64,000 nt of DNA from Bilabrum cf. latius (GCA_965178125.1 OZ237738.1:930001-994000), one strand, 5' to 3'; shown: positions 1-41,976, counted from the stretch's first letter. Numbers and translations are program-made. Notes: a model not told the origin generated them from the letters alone.

Positions 1-867
1 GAGCGCAAGCACGAGTGCAGTGTGTGCGGCAAGTCATTCGGACAGGCTGGCAATTTCAGGAGGCACATGAGGACCGTGCATCTGGGCGAGCGCAAGCACG
101 AGTGCATGGTGTGCGGCAAGTCATTCGGGCTGGCAGGCCATCTCAGGACGCACATGAGGACCGTGCACATGGGCGAGCGCAAGCACGAGTGCATGGTGTG
201 CGGCAAGTCATTCGGGGAGGCAGGCAGTCTCAGGACGCACATGAGGACTGTGCATCTGGGCGAGCGCAATCACGAGTGCATGGTGTGCGGCAAGTCATTC
301 GGGCTGGCAGGCAATCTCAAGACGCACATGAGGACTGTGCACATGGGCGAGCGCAAGCACGAGTGCAGTGAGTGCGGCAAGTCATTCGGGGAGGCAGGCT
401 ATCTCAGGACGCACATGAGGACCGTGCATCTAGGCGAGCGCAAGCACGAGTGCATGGTGTGCGGCAAGTCATTCGGACAGGCAGGCAATCTCAGGACGCA
501 CATGAGGACTGTGCATCTAGGCGAGCGCAAGCACGAGTGCATGGTGTGCGGCAAGTCATTCGGGGAGGCAGGCAGTCTCAGGACGCACATGAGGACCGTG
601 CATCTAGGCGAGCGCAAGCACGAGTGCATGGTGTGCGGCAAGTCATTCGGACAGGCAGGCAATCTCAGGACGCACATGAGGACTGTGCATCTAGGCGAGC
701 GCAAGCACGAGTGCATGGTGTGCGGCAAGTCATTCGGGGAGGCAGGCAGTCTCAGGACGCACATGAGGACTGTGCATCTGGGCGAGCGCAAGCACGAGTG
801 CAGTGTGTGCGGCAAGTCATTCGGACAGGCAGGCGATCTCAAGAGGCACACGCGAGGTTGTCACTGA
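1..867 (+). CDS. C2H2 zinc-finger array protein, copy 1 (5' end outside window; 10 fingers visible)
   Basis: 29-aa repeats CxxCGKSFGxAGxLxxHMRTVHLGERKHE; ends in TGA at 865-867. Confidence 0.9.
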   Translation, partial: ERKHECSVCGKSFGQAGNFRRHMRTVHLGERKHECMVCGKSFGLAGHLRTHMRTVHMGERKHECMVCGKSFGEAGSLRTHMRTVHLGERNHECMVCGKSFGLAGNLKTHMRTVHMGERKHECSECGKSFGEAGYLRTHMRTVHLGERKHECMVCGKSFGQAGNLRTHMRTVHLGERKHECMVCGKSFGEAGSLRTHMRTVHLGERKHECMVCGKSFGQAGNLRTHMRTVHLGERKHECMVCGKSFGEAGSLRTHMRTVHLGERKHECSVCGKSFGQAGDLKRHTRGCH

Positions 868-964
868 TTCGCTAGCATTCTGTAGCGAGTGGCTCGGCGC
901 TTGACATTGGATTGTGCACGCTGCATTCAAAAAGGGTGAAGCTTGGGATGTCAGGACTTGAAAG

Positions 965-1478
965 AAAATTCCTGCCCCCGGTCCCGCGGACCCACTGGGC
1001 TTCACCCTGAACGACTGGTTTTTCACCGGTCCACCTGAATGCGGTATTCATCCGACACTACGAATGTACACGCCACTTTCCCCATGCACGCGCGACTGGC
1101 CTCGTCGCCACATGGCTACCTGTTCCTGTTCCCCGCCCTAGGGACCGTGTGCTTTGCTCCCTGCATTGCCGCCTTGGCCCAATCCTTTCAGCTTGCACGC
1201 ACCGGTCCTGGCCGACCTGCTGCGCCCCATCTGTCCACCCGCCTGTTGGCCCTCTGCGTGCTGCTGGCCATGCAGTCCGCTGCCACCCGCGTCTCCCTCG
1301 TGCCTTGCACCTGGAGCCCCCATTCCTCCCGTTGTGTTCTCCCTGTTGACACCGCACTGTCGTCGCCTGTGCCGGTGTCCCCCTGTTCTTCTCCACCTCC
1401 TGTCCTCCTGCGCCCACCCCGTCTTCCGGCTCACCTCTGCTCCCCGTCGCTTCAATCCTGATGTCCGAGTACATAAAA
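965..1478. mobile_element. ~510-bp non-coding insertion element, copy A
   Basis: Runs from aaaattcctgcccccggtcccgcggacc to cttcaatcctgatgtccgagtacata. It is absent from the homologous flank at ~12700 (empty site). Confidence 0.65.
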
Positions 1479-1809
1479 CAAGATGTCCTGCACGAATTGC
1501 TCTTGTTCTGAGCACTCCTCTTGTTCTATCATGCTCCCTTGGGTACGATAGTACGTACCCATGCCTGGCAGGGCCTTGACACTCGACTGCAGCACGTCGG
1601 AGGCCCGGCCCCGGATGCCGTTCGCCCGGCCGCGGGGCCGTGGGTGCTCCAGCTGCGGTTGGGAGTGCAGACTAGGATTGGCGAGGGAGTCGTGATCAGG
1701 CTGCTGTCCGTACAGTCTGCCTTGATTCCGATACGAGGTATCTCTACCGCCATCGCCCTCCTGCCTCTGGATTCGTGCACAGGCTGAGGGGAAGCGCGCG
1801 GCGTGTGCC

Positions 1810-2076
1810 TGACGGGAGGGGGTCCGTCGCAGCCGTGGCACAGGCCAAGCAAGAGAAGATCGGGATCCGGGGCTCGAGATCTGGCGCCGCGGCTGGGGCC
1901 GGTGCGGGTGCGGGTGGAGTGGTCGGTTCCGTGGGTGATGGTGGCTCTGGGCTGGGGCAGGGGTCCGCGGCATCCACGAAGGAGGACTTCTCCGTGGACG
2001 CGCTGGCGGCCCAGCTGAAGCGGTCTGACGAGGCCCGGATCAAGGGCCAGGCGTGGAGGGAGAAGCGGGCGGGGGC

Positions 2077-2109
<33 letters not shown>

Positions 2110-2182
2110 GGCGCGCAGGGAGGGGGTGGAGAAGGCGTCTGGCGAAGGAGGGGCAGCGAGCGAGAACGGCGCTTCTCCGTGA
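1810..2182 (+). pseudogene. Gly/Ala/Gln-rich ORF fragment with no clear start, duplicated at ~5140-5516 and ~10627-11003
   Basis: Coding-like frame (FSVDALAAQLKRSDEARIKGQAWREKR) is conserved in three copies and ends in TGA. No ATG start or recognisable domain. Confidence 0.35.
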
Positions 2183-2554
2183 GGAGGGATGTGGTGGGTT
2201 GCGCGTGGCCTGGTTGCTTCCTGTGAAGCTGATGTTCCAAGTAAGCGAGGCCGCCACGCAAGGCCCAGCGCCTTGAAGTTGTGAAGATGAAAACAGCCTG
2301 AACCGGACCAGAGTGGATCGATCTCACCGACTCATTGTCAGATTCATCGGTACTGTTTCGACTGTAGCATCCCCAACTAAAGCCATTCTAGATACAGGGT
2401 TGAATTGGAGCGAATCAGAACTGGCCGTCGAACAGGTACACAAGAAAAGGTCGTGCATAGTAAAGCTCGTATTCCCTGTCTATCTGTAGTCGGCGGCCAC
2501 CTGGCTGGTTGCGTATCAGCAGTCGATACTGGATACAAATACTGCCAGGAAGCC

Positions 2555-4204
2555 ATGGAGCAAGCAGCAGGTGCACGCTCAGGGGAGGTGATCGATCTCG
2601 TCAGCAGCGACTCAAGCGACAGCGACTCTGGTGAAAGCGATGTCGAGGTTCCCGACCGCCATATGAGCACGATTGCTGCATCGCTATCATTGACCAGCAG
2701 TCGGTAGTGGAGCAGGCGAGAGGCAGGTGGGAAAGGTAGGGCCCGAGATTCAGCGAGCGATCGAGCCGAAGCTGTTCCCACGTCCATCGTGGCGTCGGGA
2801 CTCTCCAGCAGCAGCGCAGTGTTGCCACAAGAAGTGCAATCTTCAATGCAGTCAAGCTCAGGGGTAGATGCAAGCGGCGGCACCGATGCCTCTTTGGGCC
2901 AGAAGCGAGGCAGGCAGGCAGAGGCGAGGTCAGCAGACAGCTAGAGCGGATCGAGTGGAAAGAGACGGCGTGGGCAGGCAGGCGCAATCGGGGCAGGACA
3001 TCGGTGCAGCGTGTGCGGGCAGGCGTTCGGGCGGGCAGGCAGTCTCAGGACGCACATGTCCACGGTGCATCTGGGCGAGCGCAAGCACGAGTGCATGGAG
3101 TGCGGCAAGTCATTTGGGGAGGCAGGCAATCTCAGTAGGCACATGTCCACTGTGCATCTGGGCGAGCGCAAGCACGAGTGCATGGAGTGCGGCAAGTCAT
3201 TTGGTGTGGCAGGCAGTCTCAGGAGGCACATGAGGACAGTGCATCTGGGCGAGCGCAAGCACGAGTGCAGTGTGTGCGGCAAGTCATTCGGTGTGGCAGG
3301 CAATCTCAGGACGCACATGAGGACCGTGCATCTGGGCGAGCGCAAGCACGAGTGCATGGAGTGCGGCAAGTCATTCGGACGGGCAGGCCATCTCAGGACG
3401 CACATGAGGACCGTGCATGTTGGGGAGCGCAAGCACGAGTGCATGGAGTGCGGCAAGTCATTCGGGGAGGCAGGCCATCTCAGGAGGCACATGAGGACTG
3501 TGCATCTGGGCGAGCGGAAGCACGAGTGCGTGGAGTGCGGCAAGTCATTCGGTCTAGCAGGCGATCTCAGGAGGCACATGAGGACCGTGCATCTGGGCGA
3601 GCGCAAGCACGAGTGCATGGTGTGCGGCAAGTCATTCGGACAGGCAGGCAATCTCAGGACGCACATGTCCACTGTGCATCTGGGCGAGCGCAAGCACGAG
3701 TGCATGGTGTGCGGCAAGTCATTCGGGCAGGCGGGCGATCACAGGACGCACATGTCCACTGTGCATCTGGGCGAGCGCAAGCACGGGTGCAGTGTGTGCG
3801 GCAAGTCATTCGGTGTGGCAGGCAATCTCAGGAGACACATGTCCACTGTGCATCTGGGCGAGCGCAAGCACGAGTGCATGGTGTGCGGCAAGTCATTCGG
3901 ACAGGCAGGCAATCTCAGGACGCACATGAGGACTGTGCATCTGGGCGAGCGCAAGCACGAGTGCAGTGTGTGCGGCAAGTCATTCGGACAGGCAGGCCAT
4001 CTCAAGACGCACATGAGGACTGTGCATCTGGGCGAGCGCAAGCACGAGTGCATGGAGTGCGGCAAGTCATTCGGGCTGGCAGGCCATCTCAGGACGCACA
4101 TGAGGACAGTGCACATGGGCGAGCGCAAGCACGAGTGCATGGTGTGCGGCAAGTCATTCGGACAGGCAGGCGATCTCAGGAGGCACACGCGAGGTTGCCA
4201 TTGA
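2555..4204 (+). CDS. C2H2 zinc-finger array protein, copy 2 (14 fingers, N-terminal SIM-like/acidic region)
   Basis: ATG 2555 (MEQAAGARSGEVIDLVSSDSSDSD) is in frame with the finger array through TAGs at 2705 and 2942; ends in TGA. Confidence 0.85.
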
Positions 4205-4300
4205 TTCGCTTGCATTTTGCAGCGAGTGGCTCGGCGCTTGACATTGGATTGTGCACGCTGCATGAATAAGGGTGAAGCTTAGGATGTCAGGACTTGAAAG

Positions 4301-4808
4301 AAAATTCCTGCCCCCGGGTCCCGCGGACCCACTGGGCTTCACCCCGAACGACTGGTTCTTCACCGGTCCACCTGAATGCGGTATTTATCTGACACTACGA
4401 ATGTACACACCACTTTTCCCCATGCACCCGACTGGCCTCGTCGCCACATGGCTTCCTGTTCCTGTTCCCCGCCCTAGGGACCGTGTGCTTTGCTCCCAGC
4501 ATCGCCACCTTGGCCCTTTCCTTTCAGCTTGCACGCGCCGGTCCTGGCCGACCTGCCGTGCGCCCCATCTGTCCACCCGCCTGTTGGCCCTCTGCGTGCT
4601 GCTGGCCATGCAGTCCGCTGCCACCCGCGTCTCCCTCGTGCCTTGCACCTGGAGCCCCCATTCCTCCCGTTGTGTTGCGTTCTCCCTGTTGACACCGCAC
4701 TGTCGTCGCCTGTGCCGGTGCCCCCCTCTGTTCTTCTCCACCTCCTGTCCTCCTGCGCCCACCTCTGCTCCCCGTCGCTTCAATCCTGATGTCCGAGTAC
4801 ATAAAACA
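4301..4808. mobile_element. ~510-bp insertion element, copy B
   Basis: Same termini and same insertion site as copy A, so probably duplicated with the unit. Confidence 0.65.
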
Positions 4809-5889
4809 AGATGTCCTGCACGAATTGCTCTTGTTCCGAGCACTCCTCTAGTTCCATCATGCTCCCTTGGGTACGATGGTACGTACCCATGCCTGGCAGG
4901 GCCTTGACACTCAACTGCAGCACGTCGGAGGCCCGGCCCCGGATGCCGTTCGCCCGCCCACCGGGCCGTGGGTGCTCGAGCTGCGGTTGGGAGTGCAGAC
5001 TAGGATTGTGAGGGAGTCGAGATCAGGCTGCTATTCGCACACTCTGCCTTGATTCCGATACGAGGCATCTCGACCGCCATCGCCCTCCTGCCTCTGGATT
5101 CGTGCACAGGCTGAGGGGAAGCGCGCGGCGTGTGCCTGAAGGGGAGGGGGGCCGTCGCAGCCGTGGCACAGGCCAAGCAAGAGACGATCGGGATCCGGGG
5201 CTCGAGATCTGGCGCCACGGCGGGGGCGGGTGCGGGTGCGGGTGCGGGTGGAGTGGTCGGTTCCGTGGGTGATGGTGGCTCTGGGCTGGGGCAGGGGTCC
5301 GCGGCATCCACCAAGGAGGCCTTCTCCGTGGACGCGCTGGCGACCCAGCTGAAGCGGTCCGATGAGGCCCGGATCAAGGGCCAGGCGTGGAGGGAGAAGC
5401 GGGCGGGGGCGGAGCAGCAGCAGAAGCAGCAGCAGCAGCTGCAGGTGCGCAGGGAGAGGGTGGAGAAGGCGTCTGGCGAAGGAGGGGCAGCGAGCGAAAA
5501 CGGTGCTTCTCCGTGAGGAGGGATGTGGTGGGTTGCGCGTGGCCTGGTTGCTTCCTGTGAAGCTGATGTTCCAAGTAAGCGAGGCCGCCACGCCCAGCCC
5601 AGCACCTTGAAGTTGTGAAGATGAAAACAGCCTGAACCGGACCAGAGTCGATCGATCTCACCGACTCATTGTCCGTTTCATCGATACTGTTTCGACTGTA
5701 GCATCCCTAACTAAAGCCTTTCTAGATACAGGGTTGAGTTGGAGCGAATCAGAACTGGCCGTCGAACAGGTACAGAAGAGAAGGGCGTGCATAGTAAAGC
5801 TCGTATTCCCTGTCATTCTGACGTCGGCAGCCACCTGGCTGGGTTGCGTATCAGCAGTCAATACTGAATACAAATACTGCCAGGAAGCC

Positions 5890-7278
5890 ATGGAGCAAGC
5901 AGCAGGTGCATGCTCAGGGGAGGTGATCGATCTCGTCAGCAGCGACTCAAGCGACAGCGACTCTGGTGAAAGCGATGTCGAGGTTCCCGACCGTCATATG
6001 AGCACGATTGCTGCATCGCTATCATTGACCAGCAGCCGCTAGTGGGGCAGGAGAGAGGCAGATGGGAAAGGTAGGACCCGATATTCAGCCGGCGATCGAG
6101 CCAAAGCTGCTCCCACGTCCATCGTGGCGTCGGGACACTCCAGCAGCAGCGCAATGTTGCCGCAAGAAGTGCAATCTTCAATGCAGTCAAGCTCAGGGGT
6201 AGGTGCAAGCGGCGGCACCGATGCCTCTGTGGGTCAGAAGCGAGGCAGGCAGGCAGAGGCGAGGTCAGCAGACAGCTTGAGCGGATCGAGGGCGAAGAGA
6301 CGGCGTGGACAGGCAGGCGCAATCGGGGCAGGACATCGGTGCAGCGTGTGTGGACAGGCATTCGGACAGGCAGGCCATCTCAGGAGGCACATGTCCACTG
6401 TGCATCTGGGCGAGCGCAAGCACGAGTGCATGGAGTGCGGCAAGTCATTCGGGCTGGCAGGCAGTCTCAGGAGGCACATGAGGACAGTGCATCTGGGCGA
6501 GCGCAAGCACGAGTGCATGGAGTGCGGCAAGTCATTCGGGCAGGCAAGCTATCTCAGGACGCACATGTCCACTGTGCATCTGGGCGAGCGCAAGCACGAG
6601 TGCATGGAGTGCGGCAAGTCATTCGGGCTGGCAGGCTCACTCAGGACGCACATGTCCACTGTGCATCTGGGCGAGCGCAAGCACGAGTGCATGGAGTGCG
6701 GCAAGTCATTCGGATAGGCAGGCCATCTCGGGACGCACATGAGGACAGTGCATCTGGGCGAGCGCAAGCACGAGTGCATGGTGTGCGGCAAGTCATTCGG
6801 TGCGGCAGGCAGTCTCAGGAGGCACATGTCCACTGTGCATCTGGGCGAGCGCAAGCACGAGTGCATGGAGTGCGGCAAATCATTCGGACGGGCAGGCTCA
6901 CTCAGGACGCACATGTCCACTGTGCATCTGGGCGAGCGCAAGCACGAGTGCATGGAGTGCGGCAAGTCATTCGGATAGGCAGGCCATCTCGGGACGCACA
7001 TGAGGACAGTGCATCTGGGCGAGCGCAAGCACGAGTGCATGGTGTGCGGCAAGTCATTCGGGCGGGCAGGCCATATCAGGACGCACATGTCCACTGTGCA
7101 TCTGGGCGAGCGCAAGCACGAGTGCATGGAGTGCGGCAAGTCATTCGGACAGGCAGGCGATCTCAGGACGCACATGAGGACTGTGCATCTGGGCGAGCGC
7201 AAGCACGAGTGCATGGAGTGCGGCAAGTCATTCGGACGGGCAGGCGATCTCAGGAGGCATACGCGGGGTTGCCATTGA
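5890..7278 (+). CDS. C2H2 zinc-finger array protein, copy 3 (11 fingers)
   Basis: ATG 5890; in-frame TAGs at 6040, 6715 and 6976. The last two sit where sister fingers have CAG (gga tag gca ggc cat vs gga cag gca ggc cat). Ends in TGA. Confidence 0.85.
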
Positions 7279-7408
7279 TTCGCTTGCATTCTGCAGCGAG
7301 TGGCTCGGCGCTTAATATTGGATTGTGCACGCTGGATGAAAGGGTGTATCTTTGACGGTCAGGACCCGATGTGCTGCACGCACCCCTGTTATTGAACCTA
7401 GACTACAG

Positions 7409-8978
7409 AAAAATTCCTGCCCCCGGTCCCGCGGACCCACTGGGCTTCACCCCGAACGACTGGTTCTTCACCGGTCCACCTGAATGCGGTATTCATCTGA
7501 CACTACGAATGTACACACCACTTTCCCCATGCACCCGACTGGCCTCGTCGCCACATGGCTTCCTGTTCCTGTTCCCCGCCCTAGGGACCGTGTGCTTTGC
7601 TCCCAGCATCGCCACCTTGGCCCTATCCTTTCAGCTTGCACGCGCCGGTCCTGGCCGACCTGCCGTGCGCCCCATCTGTCCACCCACCTGTTGGCCTTCT
7701 GCGTGCTGCTGGCCATGCAGTCCGCTGCCACCCGCGTCTCCCTCGTGCCTTGCACCTGGAGCCCCCATTCCTCCCGTTGGGTTCTCCCTGTTGACACCGC
7801 ACTGTCGTCGCCTGTGCCGGTGTCCCCCTCTTCTTCTCCACCTCCTGTCCTCCCGCCTCGTCTTCCGTCTCACCTCTGCTCCCCGTTGCTTCAATCCTGA
7901 TGTCCGAGTACATATAACATACATCATGCATAAAAATTCCTGCCCCCGGTCCCGCGGACCCACTGGGCTTCACACCGAACGACTGGTTCTTCACCGGTCC
8001 ACCTGAATGCGGTATTCATCTGACACTACGAATTTACACGCCACTTTCCCCATGCACCCGACTGGCCTCGTCGCCACATGGCTTCCTGTTCCTGTTCCCC
8101 GCCCTAGGGACCGTGTGCTTTGCTCCCAGCATTGCCACCTTGTCCCTATCCTTTCAGCTTGCAAGCGCCGGTCCTGGCCGACATGCCGTGCGCCTCATCT
8201 GTCCACCCACCTGTTGGCCCTCTGCGTGCTGCTGGCCATGCAGTCCGCTGCCACCCGCGTCTCCCTCGTGCCTAGCACCTGGAGCCCCCATTCCTCCCGT
8301 TGGGTTCTCCCTGTTGACACCGCACTGTCGTCGCCTGTGCCGGTGTCCCCCTCTTCTTCTCCACCTCCTGTCCTCCTGCGCCCACCTCGTCTTCCGTCTC
8401 ACCTCTGCTCCCCGTTGCTTCAATCCTTGCAATCCTGATATCCGAGTCCATATAACATGAACCAAAATTCCTGTCCCCGGTCCCGCGGACCCACTGGGCT
8501 TCACACCGAACGACTGGTTCTTCACCGGTCCACCTGAATGCGGTATTCATCTGACACTACGAATTTACACGCCACTTTCCCCATGCACCCGACTGGCCTC
8601 GTCGCCACATGGCTTCCTGTTCCTGTTCCCCGCCCTAGGGACCGTGTGCTTTGCTCCCAGCATTGCCACCTTGTCCCTATCCTTTCAGCTTGCAAGCGCC
8701 GGTCCTGGCCGACATGCCGTGCGCCTCATCTATCCACCCACCTGTTGGCCCTCTGCGTGCTGCTGGCCATGCAGTCCGCTGCCACCCGCGTCTCCCTCGT
8801 GCCTAGCACCTGGAGCCCCCATTCCTCCCGTTGGGTTCTCCCTGTTGACACCGCACTGTCGTCGCCTGTGCCGGTGTCCCCCTCTTCTTCTCCACCTCCT
8901 GTCCTCCTGCGCCCGCCCCGTCTTCCGTCTCACCTCTGCTCCCCGTTGCTTCAATACTGATGTCCGAGTCCATATAAC
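7409..8978. mobile_element. Head-to-tail trimer of the ~510-bp element (7409-7918, 7932-8457, 8465-8978)
   Basis: Three direct copies with short, variable AT-rich spacers. The insertion point is ~25-45 bp downstream of the site used by copies A and B. Confidence 0.7.
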
Positions 8979-9042
8979 AAGGTACGATGCTACGTACCCA
9001 TGCCTGGCAGGACCTTGATACTCGACTGCAGCACTTCGGAGG

Positions 9043-10380
9043 CTCTACGAGGCTGCATCCGCGGCTGCAACGGCTGCCGCGGGCAGCGGTGCGGGCGGTG
9101 CATACTAGGCTGGGCATGGCGCGCTGGCAGGCTTCCCCCCGGCGGGAGTGCGCCCCACGATCGACCAGTTTGAGCAGCGTGCCAAGGTGATGTCGAGCAA
9201 GGAGAAGCCCAAGCAGCTGACTGCCGTGGGCTCGGACGGTCGCAGGTACCACTTCCTGTGCAAGCAGGAGCTCTCGGGCGACTTGCGCAAGGACGCCCGC
9301 ATGATGGAGCACTCCACGGTGGTGAACCGGCTGCTGGCGTCGGACCACGAGGCCAGCAGGCGCGCGCTCCGGCTGCGCACCTACAGCGTGATCGTGACGA
9401 GCGAGAGCACGGGGCTCATGGAGTGGGTGGAAAACTGCACGCCGTTGCGCTTCGCCGTCAAGGAGGTCTACAATGACCTGGGAGTTGACAGTCCCATGCA
9501 CCTAACGCTCCGTGTCATGAAGCCGCTGCAGAAGAACCAGGACAACCAGAATCAGACCACAGCAGTCACGGCAAGGTTCTTCGCCTCTGAGGTGCAGCCA
9601 CAGTTCCCTGCGGTGCTGCACAGGTACCATCTGAAGCGCTTCGCTGACCCGGAGCGGTGGCTCCGGGCTCGGCAGCGGTTCACACGAAGCACGGCCTGCT
9701 GGGCCATGGTGGGCCATCTGCTTGGGCTGGGCGACCGCCACGGAGAGAACCTGCTGATGGATGACACGAGCGGGGATCAGGTGCACGTGGACTTCGACTG
9801 CCTGTTCGACAAGGGGCTGTCCCTGTCACGGCCCGAGGTGGTGCCCTTCCGCCTCACCGCCAACGTGCTGGATGCGATGGGCCTCTGGGGGTACGAGGGA
9901 GGCATGCGTCGGTCCAGCGAGGCGTGCATGGCGGTGCTACGTGCGAACGGGAGCACGCTGCTGGGCGTGCTGGAGTCCTTCGTGTACGATCCACTGGTGG
10001 AGTGGACTCGAAGCAAGAGCAAGGGAGGGAGGCACTCTTCTTCCTCGTCCTCCTCGTCCTCGTCGTCGTCGGCGGCCGCGGGTGGCGCGGTGCTGCCGAC
10101 CGACGAGGTGCCCAGCACGGCGGTGGGGGGCGAGGTGGAGAACATCGCCGGTGTGACGATTGTGAGGCACATCAAGGAGAGGCTGCGGGGAGGGTACAAC
10201 GTGCGGCCGCCGCACCGAGACAAGTACAACGTGAGGACGAGGAGGCACGCTGCGGACGATGGCAGGCTTGCGGGGGGTCGCACGATCGGGGTGCAGGCGC
10301 AGGTACACCGGCTGATCTCCGAGGCGTCATCGGTGGAGAACCTGGCCTAGATGTACGTTGGGTGGATGCCGTTCTTGTGA
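9043..10380 (+). pseudogene. ATR: 5'-truncated ATR/Mec1-like PIKK fragment (kinase + FATC domains)
   Basis: Motifs FLCKQELSGDLRKDARMME, LGLGDRHGENLL and HVDFDCLF. FATC end ENLA(TAG)MYVGWMPFL-TGA. The frame starts abruptly at a repeat-unit junction with no HEAT/FAT region. Confidence 0.8.
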
Positions 10381-11375
10381 AGTTGAGCGCCTCTGGTCTG
10401 GGGTCTGGGAGGGGGCGCTGCAGTGCACTGCACAATGCCTTCTCCCGCGGGGCTGTGGGTGCTCAAGCTGCGGTTGGGAGTGCAGACTAGGATTGTGAGG
10501 GAGTCGAGATCGGGTTGCTATTCGCACACTCTGCCTTGATTCCGATACGAGGCATCTCGACCGCCATCGCCCTCCTGCCTCTGGATTCGTGCACAGGCTG
10601 AGGGGAAGCGCGCGGCGTGTGCCTGAAGGGGAGGGGGGCCGTCACAGCCGTGGCACAGGCCAAGCAAGAGACGATCGGGATCCGGGGCTCGAGATCTGGC
10701 GCCACGGCGGGGGCGGGTGCGGGTGCGGGTGCGGGTGGAGTGGTCGGTTCCGTGGGTGATGGTGGCTCTGGGCTGGGGCAGGGGTCCGCGGCATCCACGA
10801 AGGAGGCCTTCTCCGTGGACGCGCTGGCGGCCCAGCTGAAGCGGTCCGATGAGGCCCGGATCAAGGGCCAGGCGTGGAGGGAGAAGCGGGCGGGGGCGGA
10901 GCAGCAGCAGAAGCAGCAGCAGCAGCTGCAGGTGCGCAGGGAGAGGGTGGAGAAGGCGTCTGGCGAAGGAGGGGCAGCGAGCGAGAACGGCGCTTCTCCG
11001 TGAGGAGGGATGTGGTGGGTTGCGCGTGGCCTGATTGCTTCCTGTGAAGCTGATATTCCAAGTAAGCGAGGCTGCCACGCCCAGCCAAGCACCTTCACGT
11101 TGTGAAGATGAAAACAGCCTGAACCGGACCAGAGTGGATCGATCTCACCGAAGCATTGTCAGTTTCATCGATACTGTTTCGACTGCAGCATCCCCAACTA
11201 TAGCCTTTCTAGATACAGGGTTGAGTTGGAGCGAATCAGAACTGGCCGTCGAACAGGTACACAAGAAAAGGGCGTGCATAGTAAAGCTCGTATTCCCTGT
11301 CATTCTGTAGTCGGCAGCCACCTGGCTGGCTGCGTATCAGCAGTCGATACTGGATACAAATACTGCCAGGAAGCC

Positions 11376-12620
11376 ATGGAGCAAGCAGCAGGTGCACGCT
11401 CAGGGGAGGTGATCGATCTCGTCAGCAGCGACTCAAGCGACAGCGACTCTGGTGGAAGCGATGTCGAGATTCCCGACCGTCACATTAGCACGATTGCTGC
11501 ATCGCTATCATTGACCAGCAGTCGGTAGTGGGGCAGGCGAGACGCAGATGGGAAAGGTAGGGCCCGAGATTCAGCGAGCGATCGAGCCAAAGCTGTTCCC
11601 ACGTCCATCGTGGCGTCGGGACTATCCAGCAGCAGCGCAATGTTGCCGCAAGAAGTGCAATCTTCAATGCAGTCAAGCTCAGGGGTAGATGCAAGCGGCG
11701 GCACAGGTGCCTCTGTGGGCCAGAAGCGAGGCAGGCAGGCAGAGGCGAGGTCAGCAGACAGCTAGAGCGGATCGAGGGGAAAGAGACGGCGTGGGCAGGG
11801 ATCGATGGGAAAGAGACGGCGTGGACAGGCAGGCGCAATCGGGGCAGGACATCGGTGCAGCGTGTGCGGGCAGGCATTCGGACAGGCAGGCCATCTCAGG
11901 ACGCACATGTCCACAGTGCATCTGGGCGAGCGCAAGCACGAGTGCATGGAGTGCGGCAAGTCATTCGGGCTGGCAAGCAATCTCAGGACGCACATGAGGA
12001 CTGTGCATCTGGGCGAGCGCAAGCACGAGTGCATGGTGTGCGGCAAGCGCTTCGGGCAGGCAGGCAGTCTCAAGACGCACATGATGACTGTGCATGTTGG
12101 GGAGCGCAAGCACGAGTGCATGGAGTGCGGCAAGCGCTTCGGGCAGGCAGGCAATCTCAAGACGCACATGATGACTGTGCATGTTGGGGAGCGCAAGCAC
12201 GAGTGCATGGAGTGCGGCAAGCGCTTCGGGGTGGCAGGCCATCTCAGGAGGCACACGAGGACCGTGCATCTGGGCGAGCGCAATCACGAGTGCATGGAGT
12301 GCGGCAAGTCATTCGGGCTGGCAAGCAATCTCAGGACGCACATGAGGACTGTGCATCTTGGGGAGCGCAGGCACGAGTGCATGGTGTGCGGCAAGTCATT
12401 CGGGGAAGCAGGCCATCTCAGGACGCACATGTCCACTGTGCATCTGGGCGAGCGCAAGCACGAGTGCATGGAGTGCGGCAAGCGCTTCGGGCGGGCAGGC
12501 GATCTCAGGACGCACATGAGGACTGTGCACATGGGCGAGCGCAATCACGAGTGCATGGTGTGCGGCAAGTCATTCGGTGTGGCAGGCCATCTCAGGAGGC
12601 ACACGCGAGGCTGCCATTGA
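11376..12620 (+). CDS. C2H2 zinc-finger array protein, copy 4 (9 fingers)
   Basis: ATG 11376; in-frame TAGs at 11526 and 11763; ends in TGA. Confidence 0.85.
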
Positions 12621-13038: not shown

Positions 13039-14715
13039 ATGAGCAAAAAGACCGGCAGGCAGGGAGCCGGGCGCGTTCCAGAGGATTACGAGCCACCAGC
13101 ACCATCAGTTCGCCTGTCCAGCTTCCGGCACGGCAAGGAGCTGCCACAAGGCGATCCAGACGCGGCCCCGGCTCCGCAGGACGTGCCCGAGAGGATTCGG
13201 CGCGCCGAGACTGTGCTTCAATGCCGGACCGACCGAATCATGCTCGTTCTGGAACAGGCAACCGACGAGTAGAACGAGCAGGCGTGCATTCGCACCGCCG
13301 AATCGCTCGGAATCCACCGTGTGGGCCTCGTGAAGGCGCTCATGCGAGAAAACAAGCCCAGGCCGGGCGTCAAGCCGAAGATTTCAAAATCGGCCCAGTA
13401 TTGGCTTGATATCGACGAGTATGACACCCCGGCAGACTGTGCGGCGAGCCTCAAGGCCCAGGGCTACGAAGTATGGGTGACGGACCTGTCTCCGGAATCC
13501 GAGATGCTCGCCTCGCCGGCCGAGTACGCCCACTACATGGCCATGCGAGAGAGGGCCAGCGAGGCGTTCCCACCGGGGGAGGCAGATGATGAGGGAGACG
13601 AGGGAGCGGCCGCCACGGCGGCAGCCAGCCAGGGCCAGGGCTCCTCGGGAGCAGGAGCGTCCAGCGAGCAACCTGCAGCCTCTCCCTTGCTGCCGCCCCC
13701 CCCCTCCTCCTCCTCCTCCTCCTCCTCCACCACCGCTTAGTCGTCGTCGTCGTCGTCGTCGTCGTCTCCTCAGGCTGCGGCAGCTGGGGCCACGGGCCCT
13801 GCCTCCGCGGTGAGCACCGGCAGCGGCAGCATGAACGGCTCTCCGAGCGCCTCTGCTGCCCCAGTCTCGGGGTCGGCCTCGGGACCGGCTGCTGCGGGCG
13901 CTGGCTCGAGCGCACCAGCGGTGCAGCCGCTGCCGCCATCCGCGGGTACGGGTGCGGCCGCCTCGCGAGCCATGCGGCACGCTGCCAAGGCCGTGGGCGC
14001 CCTCCCCGCCCGCGTGGCCATCGTCATGGGCCGCGAGTCGGACGGGGTGAGCGAGGCGATGAAGCGGCTCGCCGACAAGAGGGTCTTCCTCCCCATGTGG
14101 GGCTTCACCGAGAGCCTGAACCTGTCGGTTGCAACCGCGCTGGTGCTGGACAGGCTCCTCAACATGCTGGGGCCGGAGCGCTTCGGGCTGCCTGCCGACA
14201 TGCACCGCGGCTCCCGGCGGTCGTGGCTGCCGTGCATCGCCAAGTCGCCGGCCATGCTGCCCGTGTATGCCTCCGTGATGGCAAAGGAGGAGCGCGAGCC
14301 GGGCTACATCCGGCCCATCGGCGAGCTGAGGCGGTTCGCCTCGAGCCGGCAGAAGCAGTATTTGACGAGGGGCAGGATCGAGAGGAGGGTGGCCGTCGAC
14401 GTGCTCATGGGGCGCGTCCCCGGCCTCACCGAGGAGCAAAGGAAGGAGGCGGTGGAGCCCGGCCTGAAGGAGATCAGGAGGGCGAGCTACTTTGCGGGCG
14501 CCAAGACCAAGGGGTACCGCGAGAGGGTGCTCAGGGCGGGGCACGGGGACCCCATGGTGGAGTTCACAGAGGCGGAGCTGGTGGAGGAGGCCATGGCGGG
14601 GTCGGAGGACGGCGAAGGGGAGGCGGGTCCGGGAGCGAGTGGGGCGGCGTCCTCCTCGGGGGGCTCGGCGGGCGGAGGGGACGAGCATCCACCGGCGAAA
14701 CGGCCCCGCACGTGA
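13039..14715 (+). CDS. SpoU/TrmH-family (SPOUT) RNA 2'-O-methyltransferase
   Basis: Motifs LVLEQATDE(TAG)NEQACIRTAESLG, AIVMGRESDGVS and LPMWGFTESLNLSVA lie in one frame joined through TAGs at 13270 and 13738; ends in TGA. Confidence 0.85.
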
Positions 14716-20764: not shown

Positions 20765-21597
20765 ATCATCATGTCCCTCCTGCACGCCCCCGGGGGGATG
20801 CTAGGCTACTCCACCCTGCTTCCCATTCATGCTGGGCCCCCACCACATCATCATCATGTCCCTCCTGCACGCCCCCGGGGGGATGCTAGGCTACCCCACC
20901 CTGCTTCCCATTCATGCTGGGCCCCCACCACATCATCATCATGTCCCTCCTGCACGCCCCCGGGGGGATGCTAGGCTACTCCACCCTGCTTCCCATCCAT
21001 GCTGGGCCCCCACCACATCATCATCATGTCCCTCCTGCACGCCCCCGGGGGGATGCTAGGCTACCCCACCCTGCTTCCCATTCATGCTGGGCCCCCACCA
21101 CATCATCATCATGTCCCTCCTGCACGCCCCCGGGGGGATGCTAGGCTACTCCACCCTGCTTCCCATTCATGCTGGGCCCCCACCACATCATCATCATGTC
21201 CCTCCTGCACGCCCCCGGGGGGATGCTAGGCTACTCCACCCTGCTTCCCATCCATGCTGGGCCCCCACCACATCATCATCATGTCCCTCCTGCACGCCCC
21301 CGGGGGGATGCTAGGCTACTCCACCCTGCTTCCCATCCATGCTGGGCCCCCACCACATCATCATCATGTCCCTCCTGCACGCCCCCGGGGGGATGCTAGG
21401 CTACTCCACCCTGCTTCCCATTCATGCTGGGCCCCCACCACATCATCATCATGTCCCTCCTGCACGCCCCCGGGGGGATGCTAGGCTACCCCACCCTGCT
21501 TCCCATTCATGCTGGGCCCCCACCACATCATCATCATGTCCCTCCTGCACGCCCCCGGGGGGATGCTAGGCTACTCCACCCTGCTTCCCATCCATGC
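20765..21597. repeat. 85-bp tandem repeat (minisatellite), ~9.8 copies
   Basis: Unit catcatcatcatgtccctcctgcacgcccccggggggatgctaggctacYccaccctgcttcccatYcatgctgggcccccacca; only two variable sites seen. Confidence 0.95.
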
Positions 21598-22091
21598 TGC
21601 TGCTACTTGCTCAAGAGAATAGAGACGCAACACCAGTTCGTCGCTATTTCGTAGCCATTCCAATCATGATACTATAATCTGCGTGCAATGCCAAGCAATT
21701 GTGGCATGCAAGTCCCCCGTGAACTGCTTCCGCTTACCGCAGCGTGTCGTCTCCCGATGGATCGGCAGCGCGGTTTATCAGATACGCCTTCTTTACGAAG
21801 AGGCTTTCAAGAGGGGACGTCATTAACCGTGCTACGTCCGACTCAAGTCGTGTGCAACGGTTTGGCACGGGAGCCACTACACCGCAAAGATAGCTGTACA
21901 CTGTGGCGCGCGAGAAGATCACCGGACGGAACTACTCTCAGCTACTGTGAATGTAAACACATAAAATCTTCTTAAAATCCAGGCCTTGGGTCACGGCGAT
22001 GCTCAGTAAGCCGATTCATTTAGTTCCTTCGTCCTGTAATAGTCGCGGCAACCGAATTAAAAATAAAAATAGTAAAAATAAAAAAGTTAAT

Positions 22092-22164
22092 TACTGGAAC
22101 TGGGTCTCGATCCCAGGACTTGCCGCTTATCAGACGACCGCTCTACCAACTGAGCTATACCAGC
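22092..22164 (-). tRNA. tRNA-Ile, anticodon GAT
   Basis: 73-nt cloverleaf GCTGGTA TA GCTC AGTTGGTA GAGC G GTCGT CTGATAA GCGGC AAGTC CTGGG ATCGAGA CCCAG TTCCAGT A. AT-rich TATA-like sequence upstream and T5 runs just downstream (Pol III terminator-like). Confidence 0.8.
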
Positions 22165-22628: not shown

Positions 22629-26096
<3,468 letters not shown>

Positions 26097-38276: not shown

Positions 38277-39962
38277 TCACGCGCTACCGTCCATGAGGAT
38301 CTGCGCCACCTTGGCCCTCGTCTCCATCACTGCCATGGGGTCCTTCTCGAAGTTCGTCGGGCCCTTCACCACCTCCTGTGCCAGCTGCGCCACCATGACA
38401 GGGTTCTTCTTGGCAGCCAGCTTCAGCAGCTCCACGTCCTCAAGCCCGTCCCTAATGGTCTCGTACCGGATGGAAGAGATCGGGCCGTCCACACCGGGCA
38501 TGATGAACGATCCGTCGCCGTTCGCGAATACGTCCTGCCTGGGGTACACGATAAAATTGGCGGGATCCCACTGCAGCAGCCTGGGGTCGTTCTTGACGTT
38601 GCCGTCGGCCGGTGTGAGCGGGCGGGCGAACCCGTGTGGCAGCGGGTACGTCACGCCTACATCGTTCACGTAGCCGCTTACGAAAGACGGATATGGGCCC
38701 CAGTTGTGCCACAAATCCACGGCATAGTACAGCATGCCAGTAGCATGATTCTGCCACGACAGCCAGAAGAGCTGCCTGGCCTGCGCCAGCGGTCGCTCAA
38801 TGAACGTGTTCAGGTACCCCTCCTGATGCGGCTCGATGCACCAGTAGTTCCAGTACTCGTGGCCTGCATCCACCCACTCCTGCCGGAGCGTCTCGTTATG
38901 GAACTGATAGGAAATGACCCAGATGTCCACCGGGAGGTCAAGAGGGATGCGGGGCCAGTTGAGCACGGCCATCGTGCGCACCTCCGGATAGGCCTTCTTC
39001 ATCGCTCCGAACAGCTGCCTAATTTGCGGGATGCACGAGATCGGATTCTCGTCGAAGCCGTACGCGATCAGCTTGTCCGACAGCCCCTTCGCCCGCATCG
39101 CCTCCACAGTGGGCTTCACCAGGGCCAGCATCGCGTCCACGTACGCCTGCGAGTAGTTCGCGCACGACCCCTGCACACCGCCCGTGTGCACGCGGCGAGG
39201 GGCCGGCTCTCCAGTGAGGGCCTGGGGCACGCTCTGCACGTCGATGAGGTTGAGGTGCCGGGCGCCAAGGGAAGCAAGCAGCTCTAGCGTGTTTGCATGT
39301 CTAGGATGGGCCCGATAAATCATATCTCCCGGCATGCGATGGTCCTGTGTGAAGCGAGCCCACTGCTCCTGGACCGGCATGGGGGTTACGCTGGAGCCGT
39401 TGCCGTACAGCTTGTTGATATCGCCGCCCTCCAAAGCAAGTTCAAACGAGTTGCCGTATGCAGCAGGGTCCGAAGTTCGGGGGAGGAGAGCCGACAATAC
39501 ATGAACTTCGATCGAGATCGGTGAAACTCCAGCAGCTGTCACGTTCAACCGGTACGACCCTGGCTTTGTCGAGGGCTTGACATAAAAAGAAAGCCACAGA
39601 GCCTACGCAGCATTCTCCATTGCGGTATACTCATAGCTTCCATGGGATTCAGCTATCACCGCAGGATCCAACAAGGGCTCTGCATGCCACCCCGAGTTGC
39701 TGCCACTGTACCTGGTAGAGTACTACGTATAGACAAATCCAACCCTTGACACTGTGATCTCTAGCGGATCCAACTACCACGCAAAGTCTACAGTGGTCGG
39801 CCCCGACGTCTGCGCGTCAAGCATTATCTGCAAGGGCTCGGTTTCATTTAGCAGAACAAACGTTGTGATCGTTGACCCGATACCAATGTCAGCGCATGTT
39901 GAGTTCAGATTATACTTCAGCAAAGTAGGAATGACACAAGCCGCTAGGACTGTAGATGCCAT
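38277..39962 (-). CDS. Secreted DUF4091/GH123-like glycoside hydrolase, paralog 1
   Basis: Signal-like MASTVLAACVIP; motifs YGFDE, YWNYWC, GMLYY, NGDG and SSIRYETIRDGLEDVELL. One frame through TAGs at 39774, 39723 and 39603; ends in TGA. Confidence 0.75.
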
Positions 39963-40142
39963 TGTTGAAGGCTAAGTGTGAGGGAATGTAGTGTACCGGT
40001 AGCCGCAGATCGCCGGCGCCCCCGGGGCCCCGCCGCGACACTTTGCACAAGCAGAAAAAGCAAATATCATTTTCAACTGCACCGCCAGGACAAGCACGAT
40101 CACATCAGTGGCAGATGGTCTAACCAGAGACAGAGCTAGACC

Positions 40143-41819
40143 TCAGCCATCTATGAGGATCTGCGCCACCTTGGCCCTCGTCTCCATCACTGCAACGGGG
40201 TCCTTCTCGAAGTTCGTCGGGCCCTTCACCACCTCTTGCGCCAGCTGCGCCACCATGGCAGGGTTCTTCTTGGCAGCCAGCTTCAGCAGCTCCACGTCCT
40301 CAAGCCCGTCCCTAATGGTCTCGTACCGGATGGAGGAGATCGGGCCGTCCACGCCGGGCATGATGAACGATCCGTCGCCGTTCGCGAAGATGTCCTGACG
40401 CGGATACCAGATGAAGTTCGTCGGGTCCCACTGCAGCAGCCTGGGGTCGTTCTTGACGTTGCCGTCGGCCGGTGTGAGCGGGCGGGCGAACCCGTGCGGC
40501 AGCGGGTACGTCACGCCTACATCGTTCACGTAGCCGCTCACGAATGACGGATACGGGCCCCAGTTCCTCCATAGGTCAACGGCATAGTACAGCATGCCAG
40601 TGGCGTGGGTCTGCCACGACAGCCAGAAGAGCTGCCTGGCCTGCGCCAGCGGTCGCTCGATGAACGTGTTCAGATAGTCTCCATCTGATGGCTCGATGCA
40701 CCAGTACTGCCAGTACTCGTGACCCGCTGCCACCCACCGCTGCCGCATGGTTTCGTTGTGCAGCTAGTACTGCAGGACCCAGATGTCCACCGGGAGATCG
40801 TCAGGCATATCGGGCCAGTTGAGCACGGCCATCGTGCGCACCTCCGGATAGGCCTTCTTCATCGCTCCGAACAGCTGCCTCACCTAGGGCTCGCACGAGA
40901 TCGGATTCTCGTCGAAGCCGTACGCGATCAGCTTGTCCGACAGCCCCTTCGCCCGCATCGCCTCCACAGTGGGCTTCACCAGGGCCAGCATCGCGTCCAC
41001 GTACGCCTGCGAGTAGTTCGCGCACGACCCCTGCACGCCTCCCGTGTGCACGCGGCGGGGGGCCGGCTCTCCAGTGAGGGCCTGGGGCACGCTCTGCACG
41101 TCGATGAGGTTGAGGTGCCGGGCGCCAAGGGAAGCCAGTAGTTCCAGAGTGGCGGGGTCCCTGGGGTGAGACTGGTAGATCAAGTCTCCCGGCATGCGAT
41201 GGTCCTGGGTGAAGCGAGCCCACTGCTCCTGGACCGGCATGGGGGTTACGCTGGAGCCGTTGCCGTACAGCCTGTTGATGTCTCCGCCCTCTATACTTAT
41301 CTCGAATGAGTTACCGTACGCAGCAGGGTCCGAAGTTTGGGGAAGGAGGGCTGGAAGAACGACAACGTTGATTTGTATAGCTCCGACTCCATCTGCAAAC
41401 AGTTGCACAGGGTATTTCCCAGGCTATGCATTCGCCCATGGCTTAAATGATATCCAGAGAGCCTGGGGAGCACCAGACATAACTAGAAACGAGTAGTTGC
41501 CGCCGTTCGGTAGCGTGGATTCGGGCTCCAGCAAAGGCTCAGCATGCCATCCGGAGTTGCTACCGCCGTACCGCGATGTGTACTGCGTGTACACGAAGCC
41601 AACTCTAGCAACCTACATATCAAAGGCCTCGTTTGGCGCAGTGAAGTTCACAGTGGCAGTCCCAGTGGCAGATGGCTCAAACAGCAGCTAAACTGGCTCG
41701 GTTTCGTTCTAAAGGGCGTAAACGGTCGTTTCTGCTCCGATTCCGATGCCTGCACACGTATCATTGAGATGATATTTTAACAAAGTAGGAAGAACGCAAG
41801 CAGCCGCTAGAGCCACCAT
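40143..41819 (-). CDS. Secreted DUF4091/GH123-like glycoside hydrolase, paralog 2
   Basis: Colinear with paralog 1. In-frame TAGs at 40764, 40884 and 41688 align with Gln codons of paralog 1; ends in TGA. Confidence 0.75.
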
Positions 41820-41976
41820 GTTGGCAAGTGTGTTTACGAAAACAAGGCATGTAGATCCAATGCGGAACCATGGCTGCTCTGTTCGCGCGGCGCCTCTCGT
41901 GATGCAGCAGGGCAATCTGGCTGCACTGCTCTTGCCGCCCGAGAGAGACGAACACGTCTCTCTGCAGGTGCGGCAC

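Follow-up and report, generated by a model that had tools for sequence, protein, structure and literature searches.

Large, fast-evolving repertoires of poly-zinc-finger proteins have been called a hallmark of animal genomes (10.1101/2022.11.29.518450). The KRAB-ZFPs of tetrapods and the FiNZ-ZNFs of cyprinid fish are composed of a short conserved N-terminal module and a long C2H2 array, and they lie in clusters formed by segmental duplication, with birth and death of genes and variable base-contacting residues (10.1101/2022.11.29.518450). Young elements are reported to be enriched in young ZNF clusters (PMC12575710). The family that we describe here, in Bilabrum cf. latius, has this architecture too, and its genes likewise lie in clusters, duplicate rapidly and vary in the residues that contact bases. 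However, its N-terminal module is a five-residue SIM-like motif, Pfam recognizes no domain but the fingers, each gene is a single open frame, the 29-residue fingers are about 91% homogenised per gene, and the host is unicellular and not an animal. KRAB-ZFPs recruit KAP1/TRIM28 through an N-terminal KRAB domain, and they bind and repress transposable elements (TEs). The present family is co-located with young elements, and a crude motif scan was negative. PRDM9, which places meiotic recombination hotspots, is likewise a coding minisatellite under concerted evolution with diversified DNA-binding sites, but its repeat unit is 84 bp; the present family has an 87-bp unit, at least 56 genes, and no KRAB, SSXRD or PR/SET domain. 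The share of diversity that falls on -1/+2/+3/+6 has a median of 0.49 here, which lies within the range of 0.33-1.0 that part of Table 1 of PMC5519329 gives for full-length PRDM9. The C2H2 expansion of Bathycoccus prasinos (48 genes) is likewise lineage-specific and belongs to a unicellular eukaryote, and its proteins too have a short N-terminal part and, ahead of the fingers, an acidic stretch. They have 2-6 fingers compared with 5-19 in the intact genes here, and the account of this expansion in PMC3491373, as far as it goes, suggests a role in scale formation and mentions neither a minisatellite nor contact-site diversification nor a SIM. No description of a protist zinc-finger family like the present one was found in the literature, subscription journals being mostly outside the search.

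The window, the whole stretch of DNA that was analysed, is 64,000 nucleotides long (OZ237738.1:930001-994000). Four C2H2 genes lie in tandem in it, with 14 fingers (10 of them in the window), 14, 11 and 9, and copy 1 starts 783 bp ahead of it. The genes, and the N-terminal motifs as they stand in copy 2, are as follows.

1..867, + strand: zinc-finger gene copy 1, last 10 of 14 fingers (G000:C4:929218-930867, 549 aa, TGA end)
2555..4204, + strand: zinc-finger gene copy 2, 549 aa, 14 fingers; sense TAG at 2705-2707 and 2942-2944
2588..2602, + strand: VIDLV and acidic Ser tract (SIM-like), copy 2
2903..2971, + strand: bipartite basic motif KRGR...KRRR, copy 2
5890..7278, + strand: zinc-finger gene copy 3, 462 aa, 11 fingers; TAG at 6040-6042
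11376..12620, + strand: zinc-finger gene copy 4, 414 aa, 9 fingers; TAG at 11526-11528 and 11763-11765

The finger listing (10, 14, 11 and 9 fingers at 16-867, 3005-4204, 6340-7278 and 11856-12620) and TRF (period 87, 86-91% matches in the arrays) bear out the original prediction of four paralogs with at least 10, 14, 11 and 9 fingers on 87-bp units, and comparison of all four copies confirmed that finger order is different in each. Classical C2H2 proteins have C-X2-C-X3-F-X5-L-X2-H-X3/4-H repeats joined by TGEKP-like linkers and read DNA sequence through helix positions -1, +2, +3 and +6; in the present arrays such reading is suggested by where the variation falls. Pfam places the arrays among classical tandem C2H2 (Kruppel-type) fingers (PF00096, E 8.7e-83; PF13465, E 2e-100), and their best PDB matches are ZFP568, Aart, PRDM9 and CTCF. 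The finger form is 29-aa spacing, HX4H, Gly at +2 and an LGERK/H linker. A single-sequence model of four fingers reached pLDDT 64 only and gave no fold match at E <= 0.001. In 49 ORFs the spacing is exactly 29 aa in 506 of 507 cases; all 459 register-walked fingers keep C1, C2 and H2 and 458 keep H1, while the codons of these ligands vary synonymously. Similar but variant sequence is present in contigs of all four public runs examined. The fixed spacing and ligands with synonymous variation, the four runs and the differing arrays show that the pattern arises neither by chance nor through misassembly.

Read with the standard code, copy 3 would have two in-frame TAG codons at helix position -1, in fingers 5 (6715-6717) and 8 (6976-6978), and every copy would have an N-terminal TAG. 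The genes of the window are intact only because the organism reads TAG as sense. The near-identical units that had been described are real, but that description was silent on the in-frame TAG. TAG is certainly a sense codon genome-wide, so neither copy 3 nor the N-termini are to be read as pseudogenic. Its meaning is most likely Gln. At conserved positions of homologues, Gln stands opposite TAG in three of the six scored (once in ATR, twice in farnesyltransferase beta), the others being Arg in SUMO2 and Pro and His in PRP8 homologues. In paralogues the residue facing TAG is most often Gln (15% of 135), while Leu codons face Leu in 34-50%; this comparison disfavours Leu. A CUA tRNA was found (L075 1489-1561, Rfam tRNA 69.8 bits, anticodon CTA), which does not by itself fix the amino acid, and two tRNA pattern searches matched no host tRNA-Gln to set beside it. 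One PRP8 region is 84-89% identical to those of animals, plants, algae and a ciliate alike. Genes end in TAA and TGA. The same arrangement, UAG as sense with UAA and UGA as stops, is found in the UAG-to-Gln codes of Iotanema spirale and the ciliates H. sinica, T. petrani and Protocruzia tuzeti; unlike those hosts, the present one is GC-rich. As far as the survey in PMC11687900 goes, this code is not known outside a fornicate and ciliates, and no nuclear UAG reassignment in a stramenopile was found described in the literature, again with subscription journals mostly outside the search. Because standard gene callers would break the family genes at TAG, the reassignment may explain why the family has no close database relative.

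What had been described as a family of four genes is indeed four in the window, but extends over the genome with at least 56 genes on 14 contigs; the true number is probably 70-80. Intact genes are single open frames, and all 49 arrays compared differ. When an array was searched against databases, animal ZNFs matched with 36-53% identity among the best 120 of 1227 matches, and in a second search identity was at most 55% among the 150 representatives listed; long arrays make up most of both sets, so small close relatives could escape. Spacing of predominantly 29 aa occurred in one of the 271 matches listed, and the N-terminal motif in none of them. Pfam found no KRAB, SSXRD, SET, SCAN or ZAD in the array ORFs or at window 6043-6714 (residues 52 onward). 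Since KRAB, SSXRD and SET are lacking, these genes are members of neither the PRDM9 nor the KRAB-ZFP family.

The region ahead of the array is about 150 aa of low complexity, and a search with the N-terminal 180 aa gave two weak animal ZNF matches, covering 17-18% of the query. VIDLV followed by an acidic Ser tract is present in 47 of the 49 ORFs, compared with two occurrences in 110,528 background residues; the two ORFs that lack it are fragments, and the N-termini are otherwise unalignable. SUMO-interacting motifs have the consensus (V/I)-(V/I/x)-(x/V/I)-(V/I/L) flanked by an acidic or phosphorylatable Ser tract, and we take the VIDLV tract, which matches it, to be SIM-like. A SUMO gene is present in the genome, in the region of C17:13945-14157. 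The basic motif matches in 46 of the 47 VIDLV-bearing ORFs and is presumably nuclear-localisation-like, judging by consensus.

Positions -1, 3 and 6 of the helix are the base-contacting positions of C2H2 fingers, and variation had been claimed to concentrate there. In 40 internal fingers of the four window genes, amino-acid heterozygosity was highest at -1 (0.79; Q/E/L/R/V/A) and +3 (0.74; N/H/S/D/Y), in agreement with the claim, but +6 (0.40; T/R) came only fifth, below the non-contact positions -8 (V/E, 0.50) and +9 (R/S/M, 0.48). In all 39 ORFs +6 reached 0.57, roughly third and level with -9, -4 and +9. The neighbouring position +1 is nearly invariant, and variability peaks at -1, +3 or +6 in 44 of 45 genes. 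pN/pS in the window was 3.6 at -1 and 2.8 at +3, the two most variable positions; for the three contact positions together it was 2.60 (bootstrap 2.15-3.21), and 0.43 for the non-contact positions. Seven of eight gene sets gave contact values above 2.2, set C2b only 1.24. The predicted non-synonymous excess is thus seen in this ratio, but a conservative allele-count test was not significant in the window (p = 0.19) and gave p < 0.05 in three of the eight sets. Pairwise pN/pS between converting repeats has no clean null (PMC5519329). The excess supports the proposal of a non-animal, protist family of rapidly re-programmable C2H2 arrays.

Between-gene Fst was 0.11 at both -1 and +3 and 0.17 at both +6 and +2, and 0.44-0.83 at nine of the ten other variable positions; the median outside the contact positions is about 0.56. 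Subfamilies differ in the codon for Ser at +3, AGT or TCA (codon Fst 0.86), so that one residue is kept by unrelated codons. In the C4 cluster -1/+3, +3/+6 and -1/+6 are unlinked (p 0.27, 0.62 and 0.24), and the synonymous base next to -1 is linked to it (p 0.001); in the pooled set +3/+6 are slightly linked (p 0.003). Fingers of one gene are on average 0.906 identical in DNA, and 403 distinct fingers give 110 contact triplets. Six C4 paralogues that are 6-25 of 390 N-terminal bases apart (94-98% identical) have not one identical finger in common. Each family gene is a coding minisatellite whose finger number and order are altered by duplication and loss of units. Conversion homogenises the finger backbone inside genes, and the -1, +3 and +6 codons are reassorted independently through very short exchanges. 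Selection fixes the zinc ligands and retains the base-reading palette (Q/E/R/V/L; S/H/N/D/T; T/R/K) in nearly every gene.

The family gains genes through segmental duplication, in which passenger fragments are carried along, and loses them through insertion. The element copies and passengers in the window are the following.

965..1480, + strand: element copy, 98 bp 3' of the copy-1 stop
1979..2182, + strand: passenger, 3' end of an EF-hand/COPI_assoc gene, moved inside the duplicated unit
4301..4808, + strand: element copy, 97 bp 3' of the copy-2 stop; ancestral insertion shared with 965-1480
7410-7920, 7933-8458 and 8464-8979, + strand: three head-to-tail element copies, 132 bp past the copy-3 stop
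9051..10380, + strand: passenger, a second copy of the 3' end of the ATR kinase gene (98.7% identity with C4:919118-920386); human ATR has Gln at the position of its TAG codon, 10348-10350

The EF-hand/COPI_assoc fragment recurs near 5310-5516 and 10800-11003, and the gene itself, on C1, has a family gene as its neighbour. Spread of the C4 and C3 clusters by retroposition was rejected, as the units bear upstream DNA and the ATR and EF-hand 3' fragments. The dispersed element of about 510 bp has 164 candidates, with copies 95-100% identical. We saw no Rfam family, strong terminal hairpin, terminal inverted repeats or target duplication in it. Of 34 copies examined, 13 are no more than 2 kb away from a family gene and four interrupt one; without the tandem partners of the query, 11 of 32 are near a family gene (p 2e-7 at a 5% null). 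Junctions are common to several C4, C3 and C5 copies, and copies occur also in other tandem-repeat and subtelomeric sites. Insertion at tolerant or break-prone sites could produce this clustering, as could co-duplication, and neither would imply a role in defence. At least five family genes are interrupted. A virus-like island of 11 kb and 31% GC starts at the last finger of one gene, truncating it, and a second copy, 94-98% identical, lies 2.5 kb from another family gene; this proximity is no unbiased count because the regions were chosen for holding family genes.

We scanned for targets with a crude recognition code. Matching predicted motifs to repeats, the check proposed with the original prediction, found no excess: at p <= 0.05 it gave 0 of 46 genes for the 510-bp element, 2 of 45 for each of two AT-rich islands and 1 of 46 for the arrays of the genes themselves. 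None of these did better than host controls, which gave 3 of 46 and 3 of 45. The suggested conflict with mobile elements or viruses has circumstantial support from the young elements and virus-like islands clustering at the genes, but the crude code predicts no binding to them.

We give about even chances to an adaptable repertoire that resembles the KRAB-ZFPs by convergence and brings SUMO-linked repression to mobile DNA by tethering. The family would be a lineage-specific repertoire of nuclear, sequence-specific DNA binders whose specificity is quickly rewritten. The basic motif may bring the protein into the nucleus, and the SIM-like motif may tether a SUMO-modified co-repressor at the bound site, so that SUMO tethering would do, without KRAB, the work of tetrapod KRAB-KAP1. 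As the weakest step, the moving targets might be young mobile elements of the host genome and virus-like elements endogenous to it. More tentatively, and with rather less confidence, an independent adaptive defence similar to KRAB-ZFPs can be proposed, in which 70-80 SIM-tagged poly-zinc-finger proteins with codons recombined like a library silence endogenous viruses and transposons via SUMO. Two unrelated mobile elements would then prefer the 3' ends of these genes, either to strike back or because the family proteins make their own loci accessible or mark them.

An ordinary regulatory expansion, in which the proteins are transcription factors of host genes, chromatin organisers or binders of incoming giant-virus DNA with no role against endogenous elements, is rather unlikely. 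It shares all its sequence evidence with the KRAB-ZFP-like repertoire; moreover, the crude code predicts near-even bases (A.23, C.24, G.29, T.24) and gives GC-rich host DNA higher scores than the AT-rich islands, and the characterised ZAD-ZNFs are mostly heterochromatin organisers, not TE repressors (Wells et al.). Stable host targets, however, would favour conserved arrays, while here close paralogues have no finger in common and at least five genes are interrupted. It is unlikely that the arrays act like PRDM9, marking sites of meiotic or repair recombination and driven to change by erosion of their own targets. The within-gene identity of 0.906 is tighter than in typical KRAB-ZFPs and speaks for such concerted evolution, the contact-site share of diversity overlaps PRDM9 values and PRDM9 is among the best PDB matches; the SIM-like motif would then dock the arrays on the SUMO-rich chromosome axes. 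The missing SET, KRAB and SSXRD and the number of genes, at least 56 against one to four, weigh against it, as does the report that in vertebrates rapid finger evolution accompanies only the complete set of four domains (PMC5519329).

A near-neutral coding minisatellite, with an unconstrained helix surface shuffled by conversion and spread by duplication in insertion-tolerant regions, is very unlikely. It would account for the allele-count result in the window, the N-terminal pN/pS ratio of 0.79 between recent paralogues (near-neutral), the greater variation at -8 and +9 than at +6, and the element copies at other tandem-repeat and subtelomeric sites. It would also predict that all positions are partitioned among genes in a similar way, but contact Fst is 0.11-0.17 against a median near 0.56 at other positions, pN exceeds pS, +1 is nearly invariant and the residue palette recurs via different codons. 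The residues at the variable positions are typical of base recognition, which argues against binding of RNA or proteins. That reading, in which the fingers could be variable receptors for viral products, is the most doubtful of all, since the variation sits on canonical DNA-reading positions and a basic nuclear-type motif is conserved, even though C2H2 fingers can bind protein (PMC3491373) and the 29-aa HX4H form with Gly +2 and the LGERK linker deviates from the common 28-aa form.

The host has a small, gene-dense, single-celled genome. An independent case in such a genome would show that an arms race between TEs and ZNFs, or a PRDM9-like red queen, can run without multicellularity and without KRAB. 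As there are about 70 genes, a single young element family and a few virus-like islands, what drives diversification at the contact sites becomes testable gene by gene. For the recognition code, the unlinked palette at -1/+3/+6, set in a fixed backbone, is a library provided by nature.

The four zinc-finger (ZF) genes of the window belong to a cluster of six tandem genes on contig C4 (OZ237738.1) of an assembly of 111 contigs and 48.6 Mb; the start of the window falls within the cluster. The four paralogues with long arrays of 87-bp units in the original prediction were confirmed, with 14 (10 inside the window), 14, 11 and 9 fingers, and the lineage family thought to lie behind them proved to be genome-wide. 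A 17-base finger-junction word gave 409 matches in the genome, versus 0 for the reversed control. Fetched sequence of 654 kb contained 49 ORFs with 555 fingers, and 9 further ORFs with 92 fingers were present in loci picked for another reason. After two split genes were merged, the family numbers 56 genes or more, spread over 14 contigs; they cover 295 of the 409 junction words, and extrapolation gives a total of 70-80 genes.

The same architecture is found across the family. Within about 17 residues of the initial Met comes (V/I/Y)(I/V)DLV with an acidic Ser tract. It is followed by a low-complexity spacer that varies by subfamily, a bipartite basic motif, in many cases a degenerate first finger, and the array, whose finger consensus is H-E-C-x-x-C-G-K-x-F-G-[-1]-A-G-[+3]-L-x-[+6]-H-M-x-T-V-H-L-G-E-R-K. 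The VIDLV-like motif with its acidic tract occurs in 47 of the 49 ORFs, the remaining two being fragments, and the background is 2 in 110,528 residues. By consensus, this motif is a putative SUMO-interacting motif (SIM) and the basic motif a putative nuclear-localisation signal. The host genome has a SUMO gene. In the parts scanned, Pfam identified finger families only.

Under the standard code, TAG breaks all ZF copies of the window. TAG is a sense codon in this host: it occurs in frame within SUMO and six other ubiquitin-like matches, a tRNA with a CUA anticodon was found (fetched locus L075, 1489-1561, minus strand), and the family genes stop at TGA or TAA. This use of TAG is genome-wide, with window sites at 10348-10350 and 13270-13272, and TAA and TGA remain stops. 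TAG lies opposite Gln of human ATR and is aligned with Gln twice in farnesyltransferase beta. In paralogue alignments, Gln is the commonest residue opposite TAG (15% of 135), and the residue profile is diffuse, resembles that of CAA/CAG and differs from that of Leu codons. However, the SUMO site is Arg in homologues, and two PRP8 sites are Pro and His, contrary to a clean Gln assignment; Gln is the best reading but an unproven one. UAG-only reassignment to Gln is described in one fornicate and three ciliates in the accessible part of PMC11687900. The host genome is gene-dense and its PRP8 is equally distant from those of animals and plants; the reassignment may be a nuclear code change not yet reported in this lineage.

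Zinc ligands are invariant although their codons vary, which shows that the finger protein is under purifying selection. No position statistic includes the first or last finger of an array, and per-gene statistics cover only genes that have five or more internal fingers. Among 40 internal fingers of the window, heterozygosity was 0.79 at -1, 0.74 at +3 and 0.40 at +6. The predicted concentration of variation at these positions is clear at -1 and +3 and weaker at +6, which is outranked in the window by the non-contact positions -8 and +9. Pairwise pN/pS in the window was 2.60 at the three contact positions (bootstrap 2.15-3.21; 3.57 at -1, 2.80 at +3, 1.36 at +6) versus 0.43 at the remaining positions, and the contact ratio was 2.2-4.5 in seven of eight gene sets, with the window set nested inside the C4 set, and 1.24 in the other. 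A recombination-proof allele count was significant in only three of the eight sets (window p 0.19), so in the window the expected excess of non-synonymous change appears in the pairwise ratio but not in the allele count. Statistics of the pN/pS type have no clean null under gene conversion, according to the portion consulted of PMC5519329.

The partition of diversity among genes is stronger evidence than either. Among 45 genes, Fst was 0.11 at -1 and +3, 0.17 at +2 and +6, and 0.20 at a single position of the linker, versus 0.44-0.83 at the nine variable positions that remain; for synonymous sites it ranged from 0.03 to 0.95 (median near 0.56). Subfamilies differ in the Ser codon at +3, which is either AGT or TCA. 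Therefore, backbones diverge per gene, whereas the contact palette is kept or reinvented. Contact codons lie nine bases apart and assort independently in the C4 cluster, giving 33 contact triplets in 58 fingers there and 110 in 403 overall. The base immediately 5' of the -1 codon is linked to -1 in the C4 cluster, and +3 and +6 show weak linkage in the pooled set. This reassortment is most simply explained by very short tracts of conversion; recurrent mutation may be responsible instead.

Finger order differs per copy, as predicted, all 49 arrays being distinct. Six C4 paralogues differ at 6-25 of 390 N-terminal bases, yet have no identical finger in common, and in the four C3 paralogues the finger orders are still related, with units duplicated internally. 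In 44 of 45 genes, variability is highest at a contact position. The share of diversity that falls at -1/+2/+3/+6 has a median of 0.49, which is inside the PRDM9 range of 0.33-1.0 in the available part of PMC5519329, where the positions counted may differ. The family is a constrained C2H2 repertoire with fast diversification and reshuffling of the residues that read bases, and we are largely confident that selection rather than drift maintains this.

The ZF units are DNA duplications that carry passenger fragments:
EF-hand/COPI_assoc gene of contig C1, 3' end
window 9051-10380, 3' end of ATR from C4, found again adjoining each of four C3 copies

A young unclassified element of ~510 bp (full form to ~610 bp; 164 candidate copies genome-wide, 40 scored copies 95-100% identical) accompanies the ZF genes. 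Window 7410-8979 holds tandem copies; the 3' end is fixed, 5' truncation is variable, and nested copies occur. Neither terminal inverted repeats nor a target duplication was seen. One copy adjoins telomere-like repeats at the C3 end. In the 654 kb, regions selected for ZF genes, all 28 matches have a family gene no more than 1.7 kb away, and most lie 10-200 bp 3' of its stop or within its array. When loci were selected by the element (34 of 41 other full-length matches inspected, two of them to 1.5 kb only), 13 of 34 copies had a family gene within 2 kb, 4 copies interrupted one, and 3 additional copies lay on C17 at another C2H2 family. When the tandem partners of the query are left out, 11 of 32 are near family genes (p 1e-14, 2e-7 and 2e-4 at 1, 5 and 10% nulls); with co-duplicated copies roughly collapsed, 8 of 29 (p 6e-5 at the 5% null). 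The C17 family (L114 4942-9999; C17:616-621 kb) is tandem and unrelated, and the same element interrupts or flanks every copy.

AT-rich islands, some of them virus-like, also occur near family genes. An 11-kb island of 31% GC (L081 7260 to L082 8380; C4:1225260-1236380) begins precisely where the ZF gene C4:1223853-1225250 has the codon for its last His. It encodes DUF285, chromodomain and packaging-ATPase-like proteins and, judging by motifs, presumably a cysteine protease, and because of this content it looks like a candidate virophage or Polinton-like virus, although a capsid gene was not recognised in it. A second copy, 94-98% identical (L136 1-8014), is 2.5 kb away from a family gene on C5; ORFs in these two islands contain in-frame TAG and thus follow the host code. 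A different type (L096 1-6800; C3:1135001-1141800), ~17 kb from the C3 cluster, has ORFs resembling C5 DNA methylase and primase-helicase (DUF5906, weak) and one that, judging by motifs, is presumably tyrosine-recombinase-like. In the part consulted of PMC12575710, young mouse KZFP clusters are enriched in ERVs, in part through co-duplication, which resembles the proximity of element and islands to ZF genes here.

Several other features were observed. The window contains an 85-bp minisatellite (20765-21599; 9.8 copies, 98% identical) ~500 bp from a tRNA-Ile gene (22092-22164), a 61-copy in-frame hexamer repeat encoding an Ala-Gly run (23680-24046) within a 1220-aa ORF, with similar runs in other loci, and a tandem paralogous ORF pair of ~600 aa each (38277-40070 and 40143-41978, minus strand) with near-identical C-terminal halves. 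L030 4698-7358 (C4:904.7-907.4 kb) holds an 887-aa ORF with no Pfam match at 1e-4 and motifs that are presumably those of hAT transposases. L033, L036 and L043 carry very large membrane-protein ORFs that read as cadherin-like; two are near-identical and lie on either side of the C3 ZF cluster in opposite orientation.

The prediction of rapidly re-programmable DNA binders stands for the fast diversification and reshuffling of base-reading residues; binding to nuclear DNA is itself proposed from sequence. The SIM-like motif, the sole motif common to every subfamily, would recruit SUMO-modified partners, and, as the weakest step, the family may repress mobile and viral DNA. When predicted motifs were matched to repeats with a crude recognition code, a test weak in both directions, neither the element nor the islands nor the ZF genes themselves came out as predicted targets. 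Rival readings are a recombination role like that of PRDM9, which the family resembles in array dynamics; regulation, ordinary or antiviral, that acts on other targets; turnover of the arrays that is close to neutral; and binding of RNA or protein.

The suggested likeness to PRDM9 and KRAB-ZFP clusters extends to dynamics but not to membership. In gene dynamics the family is like KRAB-ZFP and FiNZ-ZNF, as far as the accessible text of 10.1101/2022.11.29.518450 describes them, but it belongs neither to these nor to PRDM9, because KRAB, SSXRD and SET are absent. N-terminal queries and array queries gave no close relatives, the latter among the matches listed, which were dominated by long arrays. 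Poly-ZF repertoires were modest at the dawn of animals, according to the part seen of PMC7535936, and the nearest unicellular precedent found is the 48-gene C2H2 family of Bathycoccus with 2-6 fingers, in the available portion of PMC3491373. Literature searches, which covered sources in part, returned nothing that describes a comparable family in a protist, and the main text, as far as available, of a preprint about the endogenous virophages of another protist (10.64898/2026.07.28.741278) mentions neither zinc fingers nor the genetic code. We conclude that this family is real, convergent and apparently undescribed, with a putative function.
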